This document shows positions 25,482 through 60,223 of a stretch of DNA of 64,000 nucleotides, one piece after another. Each line of letters starts with the position of its first letter. Within the stretch, counting starts at the first letter, position 1. Source of the DNA: Kofleriaceae bacterium (GTDB lineage: Bacteria; Myxococcota_A; Polyangia; Haliangiales; Haliangiaceae). The translations under genes and the position numbers were made by a program. Under the pieces are notes generated by a model. It worked only from the letters and a program-made list of their open reading frames with translations, had not been told where the DNA came from and ran no database searches. The stretch lies in assembly GCA_048500355.1 (NCBI GenBank), contig JASNYD010000006.1, positions 352,211 through 416,210 on the forward strand. The letters run 5' to 3'.

Positions 25482-26633
25482 GTGTTGACCGCGAAGCCCT
25501 CGTACCACGTGGTCCTCCTGCCCGGCGACGGCATCGGCGTCGAGGTCACCGCCGACGCCCGCGCCCTGCTCGAGGCGCTGGGCCCGCGCCTCGGCGTCGG
25601 CTTCGCCCTCGACGAGATCCCGTGCGGCGGCCTGTACTACCAGCAGCACGGGCGCCGCGACTGGCCCGAGGGCGCCGAGCAGCGCTGCCACGACGCCGAC
25701 GTCGTCCTGCTGGGCGCAGTGGGCTGGAACGGGCCCGACGGCCAGCCGGTGACGATGAGCAACGGCAAGATGGCGGGCTGGTCGCCGGTGATCGGCAACC
25801 GCGTCCGCCTCGGCCTCTACGCCAACGTCCGCCCCATCCGCCTGCTCAAGGGCGTCAAGCACGGCCTGTCGGGCCGCTTCGCCCAGGTCTGGGAGCCGGG
25901 CATGGTCGACATGATCATGGTCCGCGAGAACACCGAGGGCCTGTACAGCGGCATCGGCGGCGTCGCCGGCGACGCCGCCATCGACACCCGCGTCATCACC
26001 CGGGCCGCCTCGCGGCGCGTGATCCGCAAGGCGTTCGAGCTCAGCCGCGGCCGCGGCACCGGCGCCCCGGTCGACGGCAAGAAGCGCGTCACCTGCGTGG
26101 TCAAGCACAACGTCCTCCACGGCTGCAAGCTGTTCGCCGAGGTCTTCCACGAGGTCGGCAAGGACTTCCCCGACATCGAGAAGGACGTCGCCATCGTCGA
26201 CTCGTTCGCGATGTTCCTCCTGACCCGGCCCGAGCACTACGACGTCGTCGTCACCACCAACATGTTCGGTGACATCCTCACCGACCTGGGCTCGGTGCTG
26301 CAGGGCGGCATGGGGATGGCGGTCGGTTGCAACGTCGGCGACGACCACGCGATGTTCGAGCCCATCCACGGCTCGGCGCCGCCCCTGGCCGGCCGCGACC
26401 TCGCCAACCCGCTGGCGATGCTGCTGGCCACCGCCGAGGCCCTGCTGTGGCTGGGCCGCCGCCGCGGCGACGAGCGGCTGATCAAGGGCGGGCGCGCGAT
26501 CGACGACGCGGTCGCCGCGATCATCGCCCGCGGCAAGCCGCTCACGACGGACCTGGTCGGCGCCGAGCGCGGCGCGCCGCGATCGGTGGTCGCCGCCGCG
26601 GTGCGCGACGAGGCGCTGGCCCGCCTGGCCTGA
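25482..26633 (+). CDS. Isocitrate/isopropylmalate dehydrogenase family protein (3-IPM/tartrate-DH-like)
   Basis: It has the LLPGDGIG substrate loop, [21 protein letters not shown], and the full-length fold. Confidence 0.8.
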
Positions 26634-27098
26634 GGCCGAGGCCGACGCCGAATCCGAGGCCGAGGCCCGGATCCGAGGCCGAATCCGAATCCGAATCCGA
26701 ATCCGAGGCCGAATCCGAATCCGAGGCCGAATCCGAATCCGAGGCCGAATCCGAATCCGAGGCCGAATCCGAATCCGAATCCGAACCCGAGGCCGAATCC
26801 GAACCCGAGGCCGAACCCGAGGCCGAATCCGAATCCGAATCCGAATCCGAGGCCGAATCCGAATCCGAATCCGAGGCCGAATCCGAATCCGAGGCCGAAT
26901 CCGAATCCGAGGCCGAATCCGAATCCGAGACCGAATCCGAGGCCGAACCCGAATCCGAATCCGAGACCGAGCCCGAGGCCGAATCCGAATCCGAGGCCGA
27001 ATCCGAATCCGAGGCCGAACCCGAGGCCGAATCCGAACCCGAGGCCGAACCCGAGGCCGAATCCAAGGCCGAATCCGAATCCGAGGCCGAATCCGAGG
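26634..27098. repeat. Intergenic array of ~77 imperfect hexanucleotide repeats (CCGANN)n
   Basis: The units are GAATCC/GAGGCC/GAACCC/GAGACC with a strict 6-bp period. The array fills the whole gap between two convergent genes. Confidence 0.85.
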
Positions 27099-27109
27099 CC
27101 GGAGGCCGG

Positions 27110-27960
27110 TCAGGGCGTCTCGAGCGGCGGCGCGGGCTCGAGGACGACCGGGACGGCGGGGGTGCCGCGCATGACGCGGGTGACGCCGCCGTCGCGGTAG
27201 CCGGCGCGCGCGGCCACGGGCTCGTCGGCGATGACGCCGGTGACCCGCACCACCTGGCCGACGGCGACGTCCTCGACGTGGAGGACGCCACCCAGCCGCC
27301 AGGACGCCGGCACGCCGAGCGCGGCGAGGCGCGGCTCGGCGCCGGTGACCTCCGGCGTGCCGAGGACGCGGTACTTGACCAGCGGCGGCGCGAGGCGGAT
27401 CACGCCGGTCACGACCACGTCGCCGCCGGGCGCCGCGACGACGAACGGCGCGACCGCGGACGCGCGCAGGAAGATCCCACCGACCCAGCGCACGCCGAGC
27501 TCGGCGGCGACGCTGGTCCCACCGTCCCACGGCCGGCGCACCGGGGCGTGGAGCGGATGCGCCGGCCCGATCGCGACGCTCGCCGTCGGCGCCGGCTGCG
27601 GGCGGCGCTCGACGATCGCGGCGATCGGCTGCTCGGCGCGGACGCGGCGGCGGCGGACGGCCTGCACGCCGGCGGCGCCCAGGGTCACCAGCGAGACCGG
27701 CATCAGGAACGGGATGACGATGCTGCCGCCGGCGAGCAGCGCGGTGATCATCCACATGTCGCGCTCCCCGCCCAGCTTCATGTCCGGGTAGGACATCAGC
27801 TCACGCAGGCCCGCCATCGGCGCGACCATGCCGGCGCCACACTCGACGCAGTCGCGGGTCGGAGGCTGGACCAGCCGACAGCCGAGGCAGCAGTGGCCGT
27901 GGCGCATCGCCGGCGTCGCCTCCTCACCCCTGGCGCCGTCGCGACCCATGCCGCCCGAGG

Positions 27961-46639: not shown

Positions 46640-48918
46640 TCAGCGCTTGCGCCGCAGCTTGACGTCGACCTTGTGGCCGTCGCGATCGGGATAGACGCGC
46701 TGGGTGGCGGTCAGGCCGCGGCGGGCGAGGACGAGCGACGTGGTCTCGAAGCCGGGGAGCGCGATCGTCGCCGGCGTCTTGCCGACCACGACGTCGCCGA
46801 TGGTCACCGTCGCGCCCGACGGCCGCGACGTCACCTTCACCTCGAAGACCGGCCGCTCGAGCCGCACCTCGAGCGCGGCCGCCCCCGCCGCGACCTGGCG
46901 GGTGACCGGCTGGTAGCGGTCGCGCCGGAACGTGACCTCGTAGGGCGTGCACGGGCCGTCGTAGGTGAACGGGGTCTCGCCGAGGATCTGGCCGTCGCGC
47001 ACGACCTGCACCGCCTCGGGGCTCGACGACAGCGCCACCGCGCAGGTGCCGGAGGCGGGCGGGGGTGAGGCGCCGGGCGCGATCGGGGGCGGCTCCGGCG
47101 GCGACTCGACCGCTGGCGGCGGGGTCGTGGCCGCGGCCGGCTCCACCGCGCCGCCCGGCGCGCCGGCGCGCGGCGATCCGCCGGGCGCGGCGGGGGCCGA
47201 CGCGCCGCTCGCCGCCGGCGCGGCGCTGGCCGCGGGCGGACGGCCCGCGGCGCCGCCATCACCGCCGCCGCCGCGCGCGGCGATGACGACCATGACCGCC
47301 ACGCCGATCACGATGAGGCCGGAGGTGACCGCGATGACCGGCCAGCGCCGGCGCGCCGCCGGGCCGCCGAGCTGGATCATCTCGGTCATGTCGTCGTCGC
47401 GATCGACGAGCTCGGGCGCCGACCACGCCGGAGCCGCCGATGACGGGTAGGGCCTCGGGTAGTACGGCGCGCCAGCCGCGACCGGCGCCATCGCGGCTGC
47501 GGGCGGCGGCGCCATCGCCGCCATGGGCGGCGGCGCCATCGCCGCCACGGGCGGCGGCGCCATCGACGCCACGGGCGGCGGCGCCATCGCGGCCACGGGC
47601 GGCGGCGCCATCGCCGCCACGGGCGGCGGCGCCATCGCCGCCACGGGCGGCGGCGCCATCGCCGCCATGGGCGGCGGCGCCATCGCCGCCACGGGCGGCG
47701 GCGCCATCGACCATCCCGGCGACGACGCCGGCGGCGGCGGCGACGGCGGGACGACGATCGGCACGGCCCGCGGCGGGAGCGTGGTCGGCAGCGGCTCCGT
47801 CGCGTCCGCGGAGCCGACCTCCGCGACCGCCTCGGGCAGCGCGACGACCACGTCGGTCGGGAGGTCGTCGCCGACGACGGTGACGGTGGGGACGATCGGC
47901 GCGGCCTCCACCGGACCCGACGGGACCGCGCTCATGCCGGCGGGCGCCGCGGTCGGCACCGTCGGGCCGAGGTCGAGCGCGCCCGGCGCGCCGTGCGAGG
48001 TCGACGCCGCCGCGGCGATCGCGTGCATCACCGCGCCGCGCGTCGGCTGGGTCGGACCGGTCTCGTGCTCGACGCCGTGGCGCGGCACCGGCACGCTGTC
48101 GGTGGGCACCCCCGGCGGCGTCCCCGCCGCCACGACCGCCGACGAGGACGCGCCGCGCGTCGGCGTCGACCGGGCCGGCGTCGAGCTCGCGGGCGCCGCC
48201 CCGGTCCCACCTGGACGCGGTCGCGCGGGCGCCGGCATCGCGGCCGGCGCGCCCGCCACCGACGGTGGGGCCGGACCCACGACCGGGATGCCCATGAGGG
48301 TGCGCTGCTGCTCGCGGCGCGCGCGGCCGTCCGCCGTCATCGGGGCCGCGCCGGCGCCCACCGCGGCGCCAGGGACCGGAACGGGGAGCGGCGCCTGCCG
48401 GATCGTCGGCGGCGCCGGCTCGCGCGCGGAGCCGGGCATGCGCACGGTGGCGAGGTCGGGCCGCGCCGCGCCGGCGGGCGCCATCGCCTCGACCGCGCAG
48501 GTCGCCGCCGCGGCGTCGACCGCGCCGCCCTGGGCGACGCCGATCGCGGCCCCCAGCGGCACGAGGTGGCGCGGCACCGCCGGCGGCACCGCCGCCGCGG
48601 CGTGCTCCACCATGTGAGCGAGCAGGCCCTTGCCGCGGGCGTCGAGGCGGAGGTAGCGCACGTCGATCGTCGCGCCGGCCGGCGCGCCGGCCGCCCCCGC
48701 CGTCGCGCCCCCCACGCTCACCTCGGCCTCGCCATCGAGCACCGCCACCCGCGACGCGAGGGTCACCACGACCCGCCCGCGCCCGCTCGCCACGGGCGCA
48801 CCCGTGACCGGGATCGCGGTCAGGCCCTCGGGCCCGGCCAGGGTGCGGAACACCCGGATCAGGTCCTCGACCGTCGCGCACCGGCTGACCAGGCGCCACG
48901 CGGTTCCGTTCGCCACGA
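46640..48918 (-). CDS. Pro/Ala-rich membrane protein with C-terminal PEGA domains and internal (MAPPPVAA)n repeats
   Basis: It has a TM helix (WPVIAVTSGLIVIGVAVMVVIAA) and two C-terminal PEGA-like modules. The start is uncertain (a GTG near 48918 is proposed). The longest ORF reaches 49201 and overlaps the divergent gene. Confidence 0.55.
47483..47710. repeat. In-frame 24-bp tandem repeat (~9.5 copies) encoding MAPPPVAA
   Basis: The unit is GGCGGCGGCGCCATCGCCGCCACG on the top strand and it lies inside the coding sequence. Confidence 0.8.
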
Positions 48919-49982: not shown

Positions 49983-50210
49983 ATGGCCAAGGCTAAGTCG
50001 AAGGGTAAGGCCGCCAAGAGCGGCGGTGGCGAGATGCTGCTCATCGCGTCGAAGGTCCGCGCTGCCGTCAAGGACGCCGACTGCAACTTCGCGGGTGACG
50101 CGCTCGACGGGCTCAACGCGTACGTCCACTGGCTCGTCAGCCAGGCGACCGCGCGCGCCACGGCGAACGGTCGCAAGACCGTCCGCGCGCACGACTTCCT
50201 CGTCCCCTGA
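49983..50210 (+). CDS. Histone-fold DNA-binding protein (bacterial-histone/DUF1931-like) with Lys-rich N-terminal tail
   Basis: It is 75 aa with a strong GGAGGA ribosome-binding site. The core (LLIASKVRAAVKD...GDALDGLNAYVHWLVSQATARATANGRKTVRAHDF) matches the recalled pattern of small bacterial histone-fold proteins. The N-terminus (MAKAKSKGKAAKSGGG) is Lys-rich. Confidence 0.55.
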   Translation: MAKAKSKGKAAKSGGGEMLLIASKVRAAVKDADCNFAGDALDGLNAYVHWLVSQATARATANGRKTVRAHDFLVP

Positions 50211-50309: not shown

Positions 50310-51104
50310 ATGAGCCGCACCCGCTGGTGGCTGATCGGCGTGATCGCGCTCGCGACCGTGGCGAGCGGCGTCCTGGTCGGCCTGCTGGTCGTCAAGCGCA
50401 TCGAGTCCGGGCAGTGGCAGATGATCTCGAGCGCGGATCTGGTGGAGGTGAAGGCCCGCCTCACCGGCCCGGTGCCGCCGCGGCCCAGCCGCGTCATCTA
50501 CCTGGCGCGCGAGCCGCTGACGTTCACGCCGGGCGTGGACGACGCCGCGCGCGGCCAGTCGAGCGTGGTCGCGGCCAAGGCCGGCAAGCCGATCAAGGTG
50601 CCGGGGTGGAAGGGGACCGCCAAGGGCTGGGGCCAGGTGGTCACCTGCGTCGAGAAGCTGTTCGCGCCGTTCGACGTCGTGGTGACCGACCAGCGCCCCA
50701 CCGGCGACGACTTCGTCCTGGTCGCGGTCGGCGGGCGGCCCGGCGACGTCGGCGAGACCAACAAGCGCGTGGGCGGCCTGGCGCCGTTCTCGGGGGGCGT
50801 GATCCCGCGCGCGGTCGTGTTCGTGTTCTCGACGCAGCTCGGCAACCAGGTGACCCCGGTGTGCGAGACCATCGGCATGGAGGTCGCGCACGCCTACGGC
50901 CTCGATCACGGCTACCTGTGCAAGGACGTGATGACCTACCTCAAGCCGTGCGGGGCCAAGTCGTTCGTCGACCAGGACGTGCCGTGCGGCGAGACCAAGA
51001 AGCGGCCGTGCATGGGCGGCGCCCCCACCCAGAACTCGTACCGGCGGCTGCTCGAGATCCTGGGCCCGGCGCGGCCGGTCCCGGTGGCGGGCCCCGGGCG
51101 CTGA
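50310..51104 (+). CDS. Membrane-anchored hypothetical protein with degenerate metzincin-like motif
   Basis: It has an N-terminal TM helix. [12 protein letters not shown] resembles HExxHxxGxxH with the first His replaced by Met. Confidence 0.45.
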
Positions 51105-51152
51105 CCGACGACGCTGACCGACGACGCCGACCGAAGACGAGCGCCCGGTCAG

Positions 51153-51593
51153 ATCCGGGCTCGGGTTCGGGCTCGGGGCTGCATGACCCGCTCACCCTGA
51201 GCGGAGCCCCGAAGGGGCGGAGTCGAAGGGGCTCGGGTTCGGATTCGGATTCGGGTTCGGATTCGGGTTCGGGTTCGGGTTCGGGTTCGGATTCGGGTTC
51301 GGGTTCGGATTCGGGTTCGGATTCGGGTTCGGGTTCGGGGCTGCATGACCCGCTCACCCTGAGCGGAGCCCCGAAGGGGCGGAGTCGAAGGGGCTCGGGG
51401 CTGCATGACCCGCTCACCCTGAGCGGAGCCCCGAAGGGGCGGAGTCGAAGGGGCTCGGGGCTGCATGACCCGCTCACCCTGAGCGGAGCCCCGAAGGGGC
51501 GGAGTCGAAGGGGCTCGGGGCTGCATGACCCGCTCACCCTGAGCGGAGCCCCGAAGGGGCGGAGTCGAAGGGGCTCGGATCCGGAGCCGGGCT
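51153..51593. repeat. Composite intergenic repeat: five copies of a 60-bp double-hairpin unit plus hexanucleotide (NNTCGG)n arrays
   Basis: The 60-bp unit GGCTGCATGACCCGCTCACCCTGAGCGGAGCCCCGAAGGGGCGGAGTCGAAGGGGCTCGG lies at 51177-51236 and in four perfect tandem copies at 51339-51578. The copies are separated and flanked by 6-bp repeats that are the reverse complement of the 26634 family. Confidence 0.85.
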
Positions 51594-56567: not shown

Positions 56568-57323
56568 ATGGAGCTCGGCCTGGTCGCGACGCTCGCGCTG
56601 TCCGGCGTCGCGCTCGTCGCCGGGCTGCTCGACGGCATCGCCGGCGGCGGCGGCCTGCTCACGCTGCCCGCGCTCCTCCACGCCGGCCTGCCCGCCGACC
56701 TCGCGCTCGGCACCAACAAGGGCCAGTCGGTGTTCGGCTCGGGCGCGGCCCTCCTGCGCTTCGCGCGCGCCGGCCAGCTCGCGCCCCGCCGCAGCGTCAC
56801 CAGCTTCGCCGCCGGGTTCCTCGGCGCCGCCGCTGGAGCCCTCGTCGTGTCCCAGGTCGACAAGGCCGCGCTGCGACCGATCGTGATCGCGCTCCTGTTC
56901 GCGGCCGCGTTCCTGATCGTCCTGCCGCGGCGCACCGGCGCCGCCGCGCCGCGCCGGCCGCTGACGATCGCCGTCACCCTCGCGCTCGCCATCGGCTTCT
57001 ACGACGGCTTCTTCGGGCCCGGCACCGGCACGCTCCTCATCGTCGGCTACATGTGGTTGCTCGCCGAGACCCCGGCGGTGGCCAGCGCCAACGCCAAGGT
57101 CGTCAACTTCGCCTCCAACCTGGCCTCGGTGCTGGCGTTCGCCGCCACCGGCCTCGTCGTGTGGTCGGTGTCGTTGCCGATGGCCGCCGGTCAGTTCGTC
57201 GGCGGTACGCTGGGCGCGCGCATCGTGCTCAGCCGCGGCAGCAACGTCGTGCGCGCGGTCGCGGTCACCGTCGCCCTGGCGATGGTCGCCACCCTGCTCG
57301 TCGACGTGCTGCGCGGGGGCTGA
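56568..57323 (+). CDS. TSUP-family (TauE/SafE) sulfite/sulfonate exporter
   Basis: It has the GxGGG motifs of each repeat (DGIAGGGG, FFGPGTG) and about 8 TM helices. Confidence 0.8.
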   Translation: MELGLVATLALSGVALVAGLLDGIAGGGGLLTLPALLHAGLPADLALGTNKGQSVFGSGAALLRFARAGQLAPRRSVTSFAAGFLGAAAGALVVSQVDKAALRPIVIALLFAAAFLIVLPRRTGAAAPRRPLTIAVTLALAIGFYDGFFGPGTGTLLIVGYMWLLAETPAVASANAKVVNFASNLASVLAFAATGLVVWSVSLPMAAGQFVGGTLGARIVLSRGSNVVRAVAVTVALAMVATLLVDVLRGG

Positions 57324-57639
57324 GCGCGGCGGCGAGCCCCGCGCGCCGCTCGGCCCCGCTACCACCGTGGTGGCGAGCGAGAGAGACGGCCCTTCGACAC
57401 GCCCTCGCTGGCGCGCGGGCGGCTCCCGGCGAACGGCGCCGGCAAGCACTCGACATCACTCGCGCGACGGCCGCGGCTTGTCGGCCTTCGACACGCCCTC
57501 GCTGACGCTCGGGCGGCTCAGGCCGACCGGATAGTGGGCTCGCCGTTCGTTTCCCGCAGTCTCCGACCGCGGTCGGTGAAGAGCTCAGGGCGACCGGGGG
57601 CGAAATGGGTCCGTCCTTGCTCGATGAGACCCCGGATCC

Positions 57640-58080
<441 letters not shown>

Positions 58081-58197
58081 GGAGGCGGGCGCGGCGCCTG
58101 GACCCGACACGGTGGAGGCGGCACGGTGGAGGCGGACTCATTCGGCCGCGGTTGCTTCGCGCTATGCCGCGCCGCGTCACCACACTATAGTCGGGGC

Positions 58198-60223
58198 GAT
58201 GTCGCACGTGCTGACCGACGCCCAGGGCCACGCCGTCAGGGACGAGCCGTGGATCTTCCGCACCTACGCCGGCCACTCCAGCCCGCGCGCCTCCAACGCG
58301 CTCTACCGCGCCAACCTCGAGCGCGGGCAGACCGGGCTGTCGATCGCCTTCGACCTGCCGACCCAGTGCGGCTACTCGTCGGACGCGCCCATCGCGCGGC
58401 CCGAGGTCGGCAAGGTCGGCGTGCCCGTCAACTCGCTCGACGACTTCCACGTGCTGTTCGACGGCATCCCGCTCGAGCGCATGAACACGTCGATGACGAT
58501 CAACGGCACCGCGATGTGGCTGCTCGCCCTCTACGTCGCGCTGGCCCGCGAGCGCGGCGTGGCCGAGGCCAAGCTGCGCGGCACCACCCAGAACGACATC
58601 GTCAAGGAGTACCTGGCCCGCGGCACGTACATCTTCCCGCCCGAGCACTCGCTGCGCCTGGTCGCCGAGACCTACGAGTACTGCGTCGACCGCATCCCCG
58701 AGTGGAACCCGTCCAACGTCTGCAGCTACCACCTGCAGGAGGCCGGCGCCCGGCCGGTGCAGGAGATCGCGTTCGCCCTCGCCAACGCCATCGGCATCCT
58801 CGACCTCATCCGCGAGCGCGGGAAGCTCGACGCCCCGGCGCTCGGCCGCTGCGTCGGCCGGCTGTCGTTCTTCGTCAACGCCGGCATCCGCTTCGTCGAG
58901 GAGATGTGCAAGATGCGGGCGTTCGCCGAGCTGTGGGACGAGATCGCCCGCCAGCGCTACGGCGTCACCGACGAGCGTCTGCGCCGCTTCCGGTACGGCG
59001 TCCAGGTCAACTCGCTGGGCCTGACCGAGGCCCAGCCCGAGAACAACGCCTGGCGCATCCTGCTCGAGGCCCTGGGCGTGACCCTGTCGCGCAACGCCCG
59101 CTGCCGCGCGCTGCAACTCCCGACCTGGAACGAGGCCATGAGCCTGCCGCGGCCGTGGGACCAGCAGTGGTCGCTGCGCCTGCAGCAGATCCTGGCCTTC
59201 GAGACCGACCTCCTCGAGTACCCCGACCTCTTCGACGGCAGCCCGGTGGTGGCCAGCAAGACCGCCGAGATCGCGACCGGCGCCCGCGCCGAGGTCGAGC
59301 GGATCCTGGCCATGGGCGGCGTCCGCGCCGCGATCGACTCCGGCTACATGAAGGGCGCGCTGGTGCAGTCGATGGCCGAGCGCATGACCCGCATCGGCTC
59401 CGGCCAGCAGGTGGTGGTCGGCGTCAACCGCTGGACCGACGCCCTGCCCTCGCCGCTGGTCGGCGGCGACGACGGCGGCGTGTTCAAGGTCGACCCGGCC
59501 GCGGTCGACGACGCCCTGCGCGCCCTCGACGAGACCCGCCGCCGCCGCGACCCGGGCCGGGTGCGCGAGGCGCTGGCCCGGCTGAGCGCGGCCGCGCGCT
59601 CGGGCGAGGCGCTGATGGAGCCGTCGATCGAGTGCGCGCTGGCCCGGGTCACCACCGGCGAGTGGGCCGACGCCCTGCGCGCGGTCTTCGGCGAGTACCG
59701 GGCCCAGACCGGCGTCGACGGCCAGCGCCTCGACCTCGACGAGGCCCGCGCCGCCCGCCTGCGCGCGCGCATCGAGGCCTTCGCCGCCGCCCGCGGTCAC
59801 CGCCCGCGGCTGGTGGTGGGCAAGCCCGGCCTCGACGGCCACTCCAACGGCGCCGAGGTGATCGCGGTCGCCGCCCGCCACGCCGGCTTCGACGTCGTCT
59901 ACTCCGGCATCCGCCTCACGCCCAAGGAGATCGCGCAGAGCGCGGTCGAGGAGGACGCCGATCTGATCGGCGCCTCGATCCTGAGCGGCTCGCACGTCGA
60001 GCTCACCCGCCAGCTCGTCGCCGCGCTCGCCGCCGCCGGCGGCGCCGACATCCCGGTGGTGGTCGGCGGCATCATCCCCCGCGCCGACATCCCCACCCTC
60101 GAGGGCCTGGGCGTGCGCCGGGTGTTCACGCCGTCGGACTACGAGCTGGGCGAGGTCATGGAGCGGATGATGGACGTGATCGAGGGCGGCGGCGCGGCCG
60201 GCGGCGAGGGTCGCCCGGGGTGA
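58198..60223 (+). CDS. Methylmalonyl-CoA mutase family protein (catalytic domain fused to B12-binding domain)
   Basis: It has [20 protein letters not shown]...[11 protein letters not shown] (mutase TIM-barrel) and C-terminal [18 protein letters not shown] (the DxHxxG B12 motif). Confidence 0.85.

Follow-up and report, generated by a model that had tools for sequence, protein, structure and literature searches.

Three intergenic loci in the stretch of DNA analysed here (64,000 nucleotides at 75.9% G+C, called the window below) were found to carry arrays of hexanucleotide units built on the four-base core CCGA, equivalently written GA[GA]NCC, and the best explanation of our data is that they belong to a repeat family typical of some Kofleriaceae (order Haliangiales) and other Myxococcota. 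This family is probably a lineage-specific, fast-evolving compound hexanucleotide satellite, neutral and tolerated in 3' spacers. The four-unit pattern CCGANNCCGANNCCGANNCCGA matched 137 times in the window, always within the three loci, and 100 shuffles gave no match. Self-identity reached 0.77-0.79 at lag 6, compared with 0.08-0.41 at lags 1-5 and at lag 7. The intergenic position of all three loci, already proposed in a preliminary description of this DNA, was borne out by gene calling based on GC3 and by the Pfam assignments of the flanking genes. The arrays display the attributes of long simple sequence repeats, namely a short unit repeated head to tail, a length beyond chance, a non-coding position and an occurrence at several loci. 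Three core substitutions were counted among about 159 units of the window (about 636 core positions), and the abundant unit types all differ from each other at positions 5-6 only. The window contains exactly three occurrences of CCGGATCCGA, all of them at the 5' boundary of an array on its C-rich strand. No Rfam covariance model matched anywhere in the window at the gathering threshold, and no tRNA was found by a tRNA scan of the same sequence. Assignment to a CRISPR array, which consists of 23-50-nt repeats and unique spacers, was discarded, the units being contiguous 6-mers without spacers.

The largest array (array 1; 26636-27108, C-rich on the forward strand, about 75 CCGANN units) was delimited by chaining CCGA occurrences at 6-nt spacing and by TRF, and both approaches agreed with its initially described position. 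The CCGA chain covered 26636-26665 (5 units) and 26673-27098 (70-71 units), while TRF reported for 26636-27108 a period of 18 with 27.5 copies (score 515) and a period of 30 with 15.6 copies. A degenerate leader (26636-26672), containing CCGGATCCGA at 26667, precedes a core of 71 units in perfect phase (26673-27098), which is followed by a degenerate tail, CCGGAGGCCGG. Units were mainly CCGAAT (39) and CCGAGG (21), accompanied by CCGAAC (7), CCGAGA (2), CCGAGC (1) and CCAAGG (1). The array had been presented as strictly 6-bp-periodic, and nearly is; a single 7-nt unit, CCCGGAT (about 26666-26672), breaks the phase once. Self-identity rises from 77% (lag 6) to 86% (lag 18) and 92% (lag 234). 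The array takes up the entire interval separating two convergent genes. On its left, a forward-strand gene of the isocitrate/isopropylmalate dehydrogenase family (Iso_dh; 25482-26633, Pfam PF00180, E=1.4e-73, GC3 0.99) ends with a TGA stop codon at 26631-26633, and the array begins 2 nt downstream. On its right, it ends about 1-12 nt short of the stop codon (27110-27112) of a hypothetical gene on the reverse strand (27110-27907, or to 27967).

A locus announced at 57640-58080 was also recovered, as array 3, at 57632-58067. It comprises about 70 CCGANN units with the C-rich strand forward and CCGGATCCGA at its start, and its unit composition (CCGAAC 23, CCGAGC 23, CCGACT 14, CCGACG 7) is distinct from that of array 1. 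Two 5-nt units (CCGAG, about 57836 and about 58027) each shift the phase by -1, and both are borne on a 191-bp higher-order duplication. Self-identity increased from 78.5% (lag 6) to 83% (lag 191), the 5-nt unit having been duplicated along with its block. The array lies between two forward-strand genes, encoding upstream a TauE/SafE family protein (56568-57323; Pfam PF01925, E=5e-41) and downstream a methylmalonyl-CoA mutase (58199-60223; Pfam assignment). Its end is separated by 131 nt from the start codon of the mutase and lies upstream of a conserved promoter-like motif; an array-less relative, L267, whose mutase is 88% identical, keeps both that start and the TATAGTCGGGG..ATG motif upstream of it.

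The remaining locus (51153-51593) proved to be composite. The preliminary description had assigned it entirely to the same hexamer family in reverse orientation, which held for array 2 (51231-51338) and a few edge units, the remainder being mostly a different, 60-bp repeat. Array 2 has its C-rich strand in reverse and consists of 18 CCGAAC/CCGAAT/CCGAGC units, read as (GGGTTC/GGATTC)n on the forward strand. To its left, on the forward strand, a single copy of a REP-like two-hairpin element (51179-51230) sits inside hexamer units, and a short G-strand hexamer run, GATCCGGGCTCGGGTTCGGGCTCGGGG (51152-51178), lies left of this first REP-like element. To its right are four exact copies of a 60-bp tandem repeat (51341-51578, forward strand), made of the REP-like element and a 10-nt hexamer-type linker, GGGCTCGGGG. 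The boundary unit CCGGATCCGA is found at 51575-51584 on the reverse strand, at the 5' end as read on the C-rich strand. A 58-nt element present in five exact copies, of which the first is at 51179 and the other four belong to the 60-bp tandem, thus accounts for about 300 of the 441 bp of the locus. The REP-like element (50-60 bp) folds into two or three short hairpins. Because of an internal repeat of 184 bp, the copy number of the 60-bp tandem is beyond what short reads can resolve. The simplest reading of the locus is that a REP-like element was inserted in a hexamer array and that unequal exchange between the hexamer units on its two sides later multiplied it. A gene for a bacterial histone-fold protein was also observed in the window, at 49983-50210.

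The distribution of the family was analysed by searching one genome from each of 185,579 species for the pattern (CCGARN)8CCGA, which gave at least 120 stretches. Many of the matches listed were either pure microsatellites of a single unit or, in unrelated taxa, repeats within coding sequence. The mixed-unit arrays among them came overwhelmingly from Myxococcota MAGs, of which one Kofleriaceae MAG, Gw_SlAct_bin_340, held 13 of the 120 stretches and four or five further MAGs several each. When TRF was applied to the window and to 46 Myxococcota loci, the period-6 arrays all had a CCGA/TCGG core, including arrays beyond the search seed. This recurrence of the same core at many loci of related Myxococcota genomes upheld the earlier proposal of a single hexamer family. 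At least 13 loci of Gw_SlAct_bin_340 (104 kb) contained 18 arrays, about five of them beyond the seeds, or about one per 20 kb, a density resembling the three per 64 kb of the window; by extrapolation, hundreds of arrays could be present per genome. The dominant units of this MAG were GAGACC, GAGGCC and GAGTCC, and its core was found to vary (GAGGCG and GAGACG units). Applied to viral contigs, the generic pattern reached saturation, with mostly single matches among those listed, and is therefore not diagnostic alone. A control set of 80 MCM loci, related or unrelated, drawn from JGI metagenomes (900 kb, of which 393 kb at 66% G+C or above) yielded no period-6 array of at least 48 nt.

The arrays were young and lineage-specific. 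Downstream of Iso_dh orthologues with 90, 88, 86 and 81% identity no array was present; the corresponding spacers were of 50 nt, overlapping, of 570-710 nt or of 190 nt, and those of 570-710 nt were filled with REP-like CCCTTCGAC...GCTCAGGGCGAACGG elements. Likewise, REP-like elements but no hexamer array were found upstream of the MCM orthologue with 88% identity, and 69 kb of relatives' loci were devoid of arrays. The candidate explanation of a conserved element at orthologous sites was therefore rejected, the arrays being absent in all relatives examined. Their location was biased. Array-bearing spacers were convergent in 13 cases, tandem in 19 and divergent in 5, compared with a background of 35, 138 and 42 in the same loci (chi-square p=0.025), and divergent spacers made up 39% of background intergenic bases against 13.5% for arrays. 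A majority of arrays (57 of 62) lay outside GC3-called genes, and many began within 20 nt of a stop codon. This bias matches tolerance at 3' ends combined with selection against promoter disruption, the niche that REP elements also occupy. Regarding strand, of 10 arrays flanked by co-directional genes in Gw_SlAct_bin_340, 9 had a G-rich sense strand, which hints at a strand-specific constraint; this was absent from the other MAGs (4 versus 5). Array strand was concordant with local GC skew in 29 cases and discordant in 28, and an orientation set by the replication strand was rejected on these counts. A general rule based on Rho loading, in which the C-rich strand would always correspond to the transcript of the upstream gene, was also rejected given the mixed orientations and the prevalence of G-rich sense strands in that one MAG.

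Assembly artefacts, which the preliminary description had named as a refuting outcome, were contradicted by the recovery of identical sequence in independent assemblies and sequencing runs, and the arrays are real. The dehydrogenase protein was found at 100% identity on seven contigs. One ENA contig (k141_245094, 47 kb) reproduces array 1 base for base, and five Logan contigs from five separate SRA runs, identical in sequence, all break off inside the array after about 67-73 nt. Array 3 was recovered on three ENA contigs from two samples, all matching the window exactly. Array 2 was found with a few SNPs and an equal number of units in an NCBI metagenome assembly (contig L134; GCA_013328875.1). 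The longest exact internal repeats (77 bp in array 1, 74 bp in array 3) are shorter than k, hence an assembly at k=141 can resolve both arrays. CCGA-core arrays are also carried by the long-read MAG contigs L011, L059 and L097, and the higher-order structure is of a non-trivial kind that an artefact would not create. An expansion or collapse of a short repeat during assembly, producing the arrays or at least their lengths, has accordingly very little probability left. In its favour, short-read contigs of many runs end at the arrays, the 184-bp repeat leaves the copy number of the 60-bp tandem at locus 2 unsecured, one contig (L132) departs from array 2 into unrelated hexamer-like sequence, and two of the ENA contigs over array 3 share only 22 nt (57796-57817). 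To these is added a contig of GCA_013328875.1 (L146), in which array 1 is shorter by exactly 90 bp (15 units, or 5 x 18 bp), in phase, the difference corresponding to 26976-27065 of the window. A 31-nt repeat is common to the junction, so that this short version may be an assembly collapse; it is otherwise a real copy-number allele of a slightly different strain. The suggestion that the arrays are prone to length variation was thereby weakly supported in array 1; array 2 has an equal number of units in that assembly.

The arrays are also non-coding, as first proposed, since codon composition, frame shifts, start codons, phase and orthologues all agreed on this point. Best-frame GC3 was 0.70 in array 1, rising to 0.83 in array 2 and to 0.88-0.90 in array 3 (GC3 was 0.50-0.90 over the arrays overall), far below that of the window's genes (0.92-0.99). 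Array 3 passes through three dipeptide registers, PSPT, RTRL and EPDS, with two frame changes, and the third codon positions of Pro, Ser and Ala are invariant in the window arrays, which is unexpected for coding sequence. The phase of the array relative to the upstream stop codon, determined at 39 junctions, was near uniform (6/7/4 in C-rich sense, 11/5/6 in G-rich sense), which argues against a read-through or coding origin. The preliminary description had stated that ORFs through the arrays lack starts. This was largely true of the Glu-frame ORFs of the window and of a related MAG, which either lacked start codons or had arginine-rich junk flanks, but not of ORF 57605-60223, which begins with an ATG and continues in frame into the mutase; the mutase of L267, the closest relative (88%), begins at the same Met, without N-terminal extension. 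The hypothesis that the arrays encode low-complexity dipeptide repeats of the type (E-S/A/P/T)n, (P-x)n or (F/L-G)n, as small genes or as extensions of their neighbours, could invoke this ORF, the fact that all six frames are open across the arrays, and the (F/L)G frame of array 1, which is that of the convergent gene past its TGA. It could further invoke the unit variants GCC/GCG and ACC/ACG of the Kofleriaceae MAG, which look synonymous in the Glu frame, and the occurrence of the generic pattern inside real genes of Streptomyces and other taxa as well as its frequency in viral contigs. Against it, however, a continuous frame with a start, gene-like codon usage and homologues bearing the repeat were all missing, orthologous proteins sharing the same ends with the repeat absent. 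A C-terminal extension by read-through of the convergent gene was likewise rejected, the phase at the 39 junctions not being significantly coupled to the stop codons. In agreement with this, the public annotation of L001 has no gene called in the array. The dipeptide-coding explanation is so improbable as to be close to refuted.

Predicted folding differed among the arrays and provided information on two further explanations. Compared with shuffles, RNA of the C-rich strand was less structured for array 1 (z=+4.05) and array 2 (z=+1.9) but not for array 3 (z=-0.7). RNA of the G-rich strand folded into G-U-rich hairpins for array 2 (z=-8.8) and array 3 (z=-8.4) but not for array 1 (z=-1.4). As DNA, both strands of array 1 were less structured than shuffles (z=+5.4 and +4.7), array 2 gave z=-0.4, and the G-rich strand of array 3 folded better (z=-3.4). 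Canonical G4 motifs were found 16 times in the window, seven of them in the arrays (two in array 2, five in array 3) and none in array 1. These last motifs, together with the DNA folding of array 3, could be taken to indicate that telomere-like (GGGTTC)n G-quadruplexes or slipped hairpins drive the expansion or regulate replication or transcription. However, array 1 is the largest and is without G4 motifs, which refutes predicted G4 formation as a family-wide property; both of its DNA strands are less structured than shuffles, array 2 gives z=-0.4, and the dominant units of the Kofleriaceae MAG give no GGG runs. An expansion driven by hairpins was rejected as a general mechanism on similar grounds, pairing of the G-rich RNA being based on G-U pairs and the DNA of array 1 being less structured than shuffles. 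An involvement of non-B DNA is therefore considered very unlikely.

A larger, though still minor, share of probability goes to a functional recognition platform, an idea already raised in the preliminary description, in which a lineage-specific DNA-binding factor (e.g. nucleoid-associated) or an RNA-binding factor would read the CCGA/UCGG core every 6 nt. The roles covered by this same doubtful reading are chromosome organisation, insulation of convergent transcription, Rho loading on C-rich RNA, or protection of 3' ends by G-rich hairpins. It would account for a core that is constant across loci and species while positions 5-6 vary, for the CCGGATCCGA boundary common to all three window arrays, and for the bias to 3'-end and convergent spacers. 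No intrinsic-terminator-like site was found in or near arrays 1 and 3, the C-rich RNA of arrays 1 and 2 is less structured and the G-rich RNA of arrays 2 and 3 forms hairpins as reported above, and the window encodes a histone-fold protein; all of these are compatible with such a platform. On the other hand, the arrays are missing from orthologous spacers of relatives with 81-90% protein identity, meaning that no individual array is conserved. The array strand does not relate to gene direction in a consistent way from one genome to another, folding differs by array, with z=-1.4 for the G-rich RNA of array 1 and both of its DNA strands unstructured, the core itself varies in the Kofleriaceae MAG, and the binding protein is hypothetical. 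A more specific version of this reading, which we hold to be improbable, is that (GA[GA]NCC)n represents a core-constrained functional family of about one site per 20 kb (hundreds per genome), recognised by a dedicated protein reading CCGA/UCGG at 6-nt spacing and marking or terminating gene 3' ends. Its reader could be a nucleoid protein acting on DNA, such as the histone-fold protein of the window, or an RNA reader. If this were true, 3' ends would be marked or terminated in a genome of 76% G+C without U-tract terminators, and single arrays could turn over fast while the whole system is kept.

For the neutral satellite, which we favour, the reality of the arrays, their non-coding status, their lineage specificity, the higher-order structure and the location bias are direct observations, and the mechanism as well as the neutrality are inferred. 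The higher-order periodicities and the in-phase difference of 90 bp suggest that the arrays grow by slippage combined with unequal recombination. In an intergenic spacer, a short seed would first lengthen by replication slippage, and blocks of several units (18, 30 and about 190-234 bp) would then be multiplied by unequal recombination or segmental duplication. Selection at gene borders would be the only brake on expansion, so that the arrays would persist mainly in 3'-end spacers, convergent or tandem, and may fill a spacer entirely. REP-like hairpin elements would land in the same permissive spacers, and one of them, in array 2, may have been amplified by unequal exchange between its flanking hexamer units. 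The likely consequences are a local instability of length, C-rich transcripts that are unstructured and G-rich ones that fold into G-U-rich hairpins. A sequence-specific cellular function is not required by the evidence. Several observations are nevertheless left unaccounted for by purely neutral slippage: the same four-base core is kept across loci and species while positions 5-6 differ by locus, CCGGATCCGA is found three times in the window and always as the 5' array boundary, and G-rich sense strands prevail (9 of 10) in one Kofleriaceae MAG. As for the satellite mechanism, the length polymorphism that it predicts is represented by one case, possibly an assembly collapse.

Bacteria are generally poor in short tandem repeats according to a survey (PMC12699852). 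The closest known category is that of the LSSRs of prokaryotes, with units of 5-11 nt and examples in Burkholderia, Xanthomonas and, for heptanucleotides, cyanobacteria (Mrazek et al. 2007, as summarised in PMC4679880). As far as that summary goes, the present arrays resemble LSSRs in being composed of short head-to-tail units beyond chance, mostly intergenic, with a sporadic, lineage-specific distribution in large free-living genomes; LSSRs are there attributed to slippage, with function not established (PMC4679880). Differences from the LSSRs so summarised are that the present arrays are compound, with two to five unit types having a common 4-nt core and periodicities of 18, 30 and 190-234 bp, and that they are very long (70-75 units, 430-470 bp). 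They are moreover made of hexamers, whereas the 2007 survey, as reported in PMC4679880, was dominated by heptamers and units of a multiple of three tended to code. Myxococcota are not among the taxa that PMC4679880 highlights. The TAACTGA heptamers of marine Beggiatoaceae and some cyanobacteria form short runs mainly upstream of start codons, for which a post-transcriptional role was proposed (PMC4679880). They too are a single short-unit family with very many intergenic sites in related and unrelated lineages and a function left unresolved (PMC4679880), but the present arrays are much longer and favour gene 3' ends, divergent spacers being under-represented.

Other comparisons concern the niche and the behavior of the arrays. 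With REP/BIME sequences they share the 3'-end spacers of convergent or tandem genes, and REP-like hairpin elements were indeed found in the same spacers (at locus 2, upstream of array 3 and in the orthologous spacers of relatives). Unlike these imperfect palindromes, which form hairpins, the hexamer arrays are direct repeats without palindromic unit or consistent single-strand structure. As in contingency SSRs and VNTR/MIRU loci, copy number may shift by slippage or recombination, and the 15-unit difference in array 1 may be such an event. Contingency SSRs, however, have units of 1-8 nt located in promoters or 5' coding regions of surface or restriction-modification genes, whose expression they switch in host-adapted pathogens, while the present arrays belong to an environmental myxobacterium and lie behind stop codons, with housekeeping genes (dehydrogenase, mutase) as neighbours. 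Assignment to contingency loci was rejected, arrays 1 and 2 lying between convergent stop codons and array 3 ending well ahead of the mutase start. Finally, the (CCGARN)n pattern is identical in high-GC genes encoding dipeptide linkers (SD, PT/PS, acidic E-rich tails), and generic-pattern matches in real genes were found in Streptomyces, Planctomycetota and viral contigs. The present arrays differ from such linkers in the lack of a consistent frame, an atypical GC3, the absence of coupling with the frames of neighbours and the absence of extensions in orthologues.

No description of a CCGA-core hexamer family or of myxobacterial hexanucleotide arrays was found in literature searches. The kind of element, a bacterial long SSR or satellite, is already known; what is new is a hexamer satellite that stands out by its length, by its compound units and by its common core, arrays of at least 70 units being exceptional for bacteria. 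Even on the ordinary reading, ORFs through such arrays are spurious, which annotators should know. If hundreds of sites were present per genome, the arrays would be a main cause of the fragmentation of Kofleriaceae MAGs in short-read assemblies, as well as a source of rapid structural variation and of ready strain-typing markers. The common four-base core would then raise the question of whether a sequence-specific process or protein maintains this satellite family.

The intergenic spacers occupied by the hexamer arrays were also used by a family of REP-like small hairpin elements of the form CCTTCGAC...GCTCAGG(G), which reads CCCTGAGC...GTCGAAGG on the opposite strand. Within the window these elements were located at 51179-51236, 51341-51578, about 57385-57440 and about 57480-57535; elsewhere, they were found on two contigs from other assemblies or genomes (L139, 11400-11850; L140, 5450-5700) and at the mutase locus of a relative (L267, 9540-9790). 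REP-like elements were present instead of hexamer arrays in the orthologous spacers of relatives. The search of Rfam returned no match for this family.

Other tandem repeats were also detected in the window. A 13-nt repeat, CGCTGACCGACGA (51099-51139, 3.2 copies), overlapped the stop codon of the gene at 50310-51104, so that each copy repeated TGA. A 24-bp repeat, CGGCGCCATCGCCGCCACGGGCGG (47483-47709, 9.5 copies, 94% identical), was enclosed in a 72-bp higher-order repeat inside long ORFs and is probably a coding repeat.

For arrays between co-directional genes in the Kofleriaceae MAG Gw_SlAct_bin_340, the G-rich strand (NNTCGG) was the sense strand in nine of 10 cases (count based on loci L008, L028, L054, L060, L083, L096, L110 and L111), versus a split of 4 to 5 among other Myxococcota MAGs. 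Array strand showed no relation to GC skew. Three separate TCGG-core arrays were found inside 1.2 kb on a long-read contig of a Sandaracinaceae MAG (L059, 1135-2317), and these arrays included the variant units ACACGG and ACTCAG, so some lineages do not keep the core constant.

The surroundings of the arrays in the window displayed several further features. Between array 3 and the promoter region of the methylmalonyl-CoA mutase gene lay two copies of a 14-nt direct repeat, CACGGTGGAGGCGG (58108-58135). Directly 5' of the mutase start codon, a motif GCTATGCCGC...TATAGTCGGGG(A)CGATG was conserved between the window (58150-58201) and the relative's locus (L267, 9940-9982). A scan for the sigma-70 consensus found nothing; a -10-like TATAGT stood 7-8 nt before the ATG, and this spacing suggests a mutase mRNA that is leaderless or has a very short leader. 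Locus 2, for its part, began ~1 kb downstream of a gene (49983-50210, plus strand) for a bacterial histone-fold protein of 75 aa. Among PDB sequences, it matched the DUF1931 domain protein 9qt0_A (E=5e-9) and the CBFD_NFYB_HMF domain proteins 8cmp_A and 8fvx_A (E about 8e-5); Pfam gave only a sub-threshold match to CENP-X.

Near its end (last 50 nt), contig L132 (ENA ERZ27309508, k141_211635) matched array 2 over nine units and then went on as GGGCAAAGCGGGGCCGGGCAGGTCGGGCTCGGGCAGGTC..., a continuation not present in the window. Either the contig is a chimera that joins array 2 to a different array of the genome, or it records a structural variant.

The arrays of the window also had a 5' boundary in common. 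The sequence CCGGATCCGA, with the 8-bp palindrome CGGATCCG inside it, occurred exactly three times in the window (26667-26676 and 57632-57641 on the plus strand, 51575-51584 on the minus strand), in every case forming the opening unit or units of an array read on the C-rich strand. Its position at array starts may be the sign of a common seed or of polar growth.
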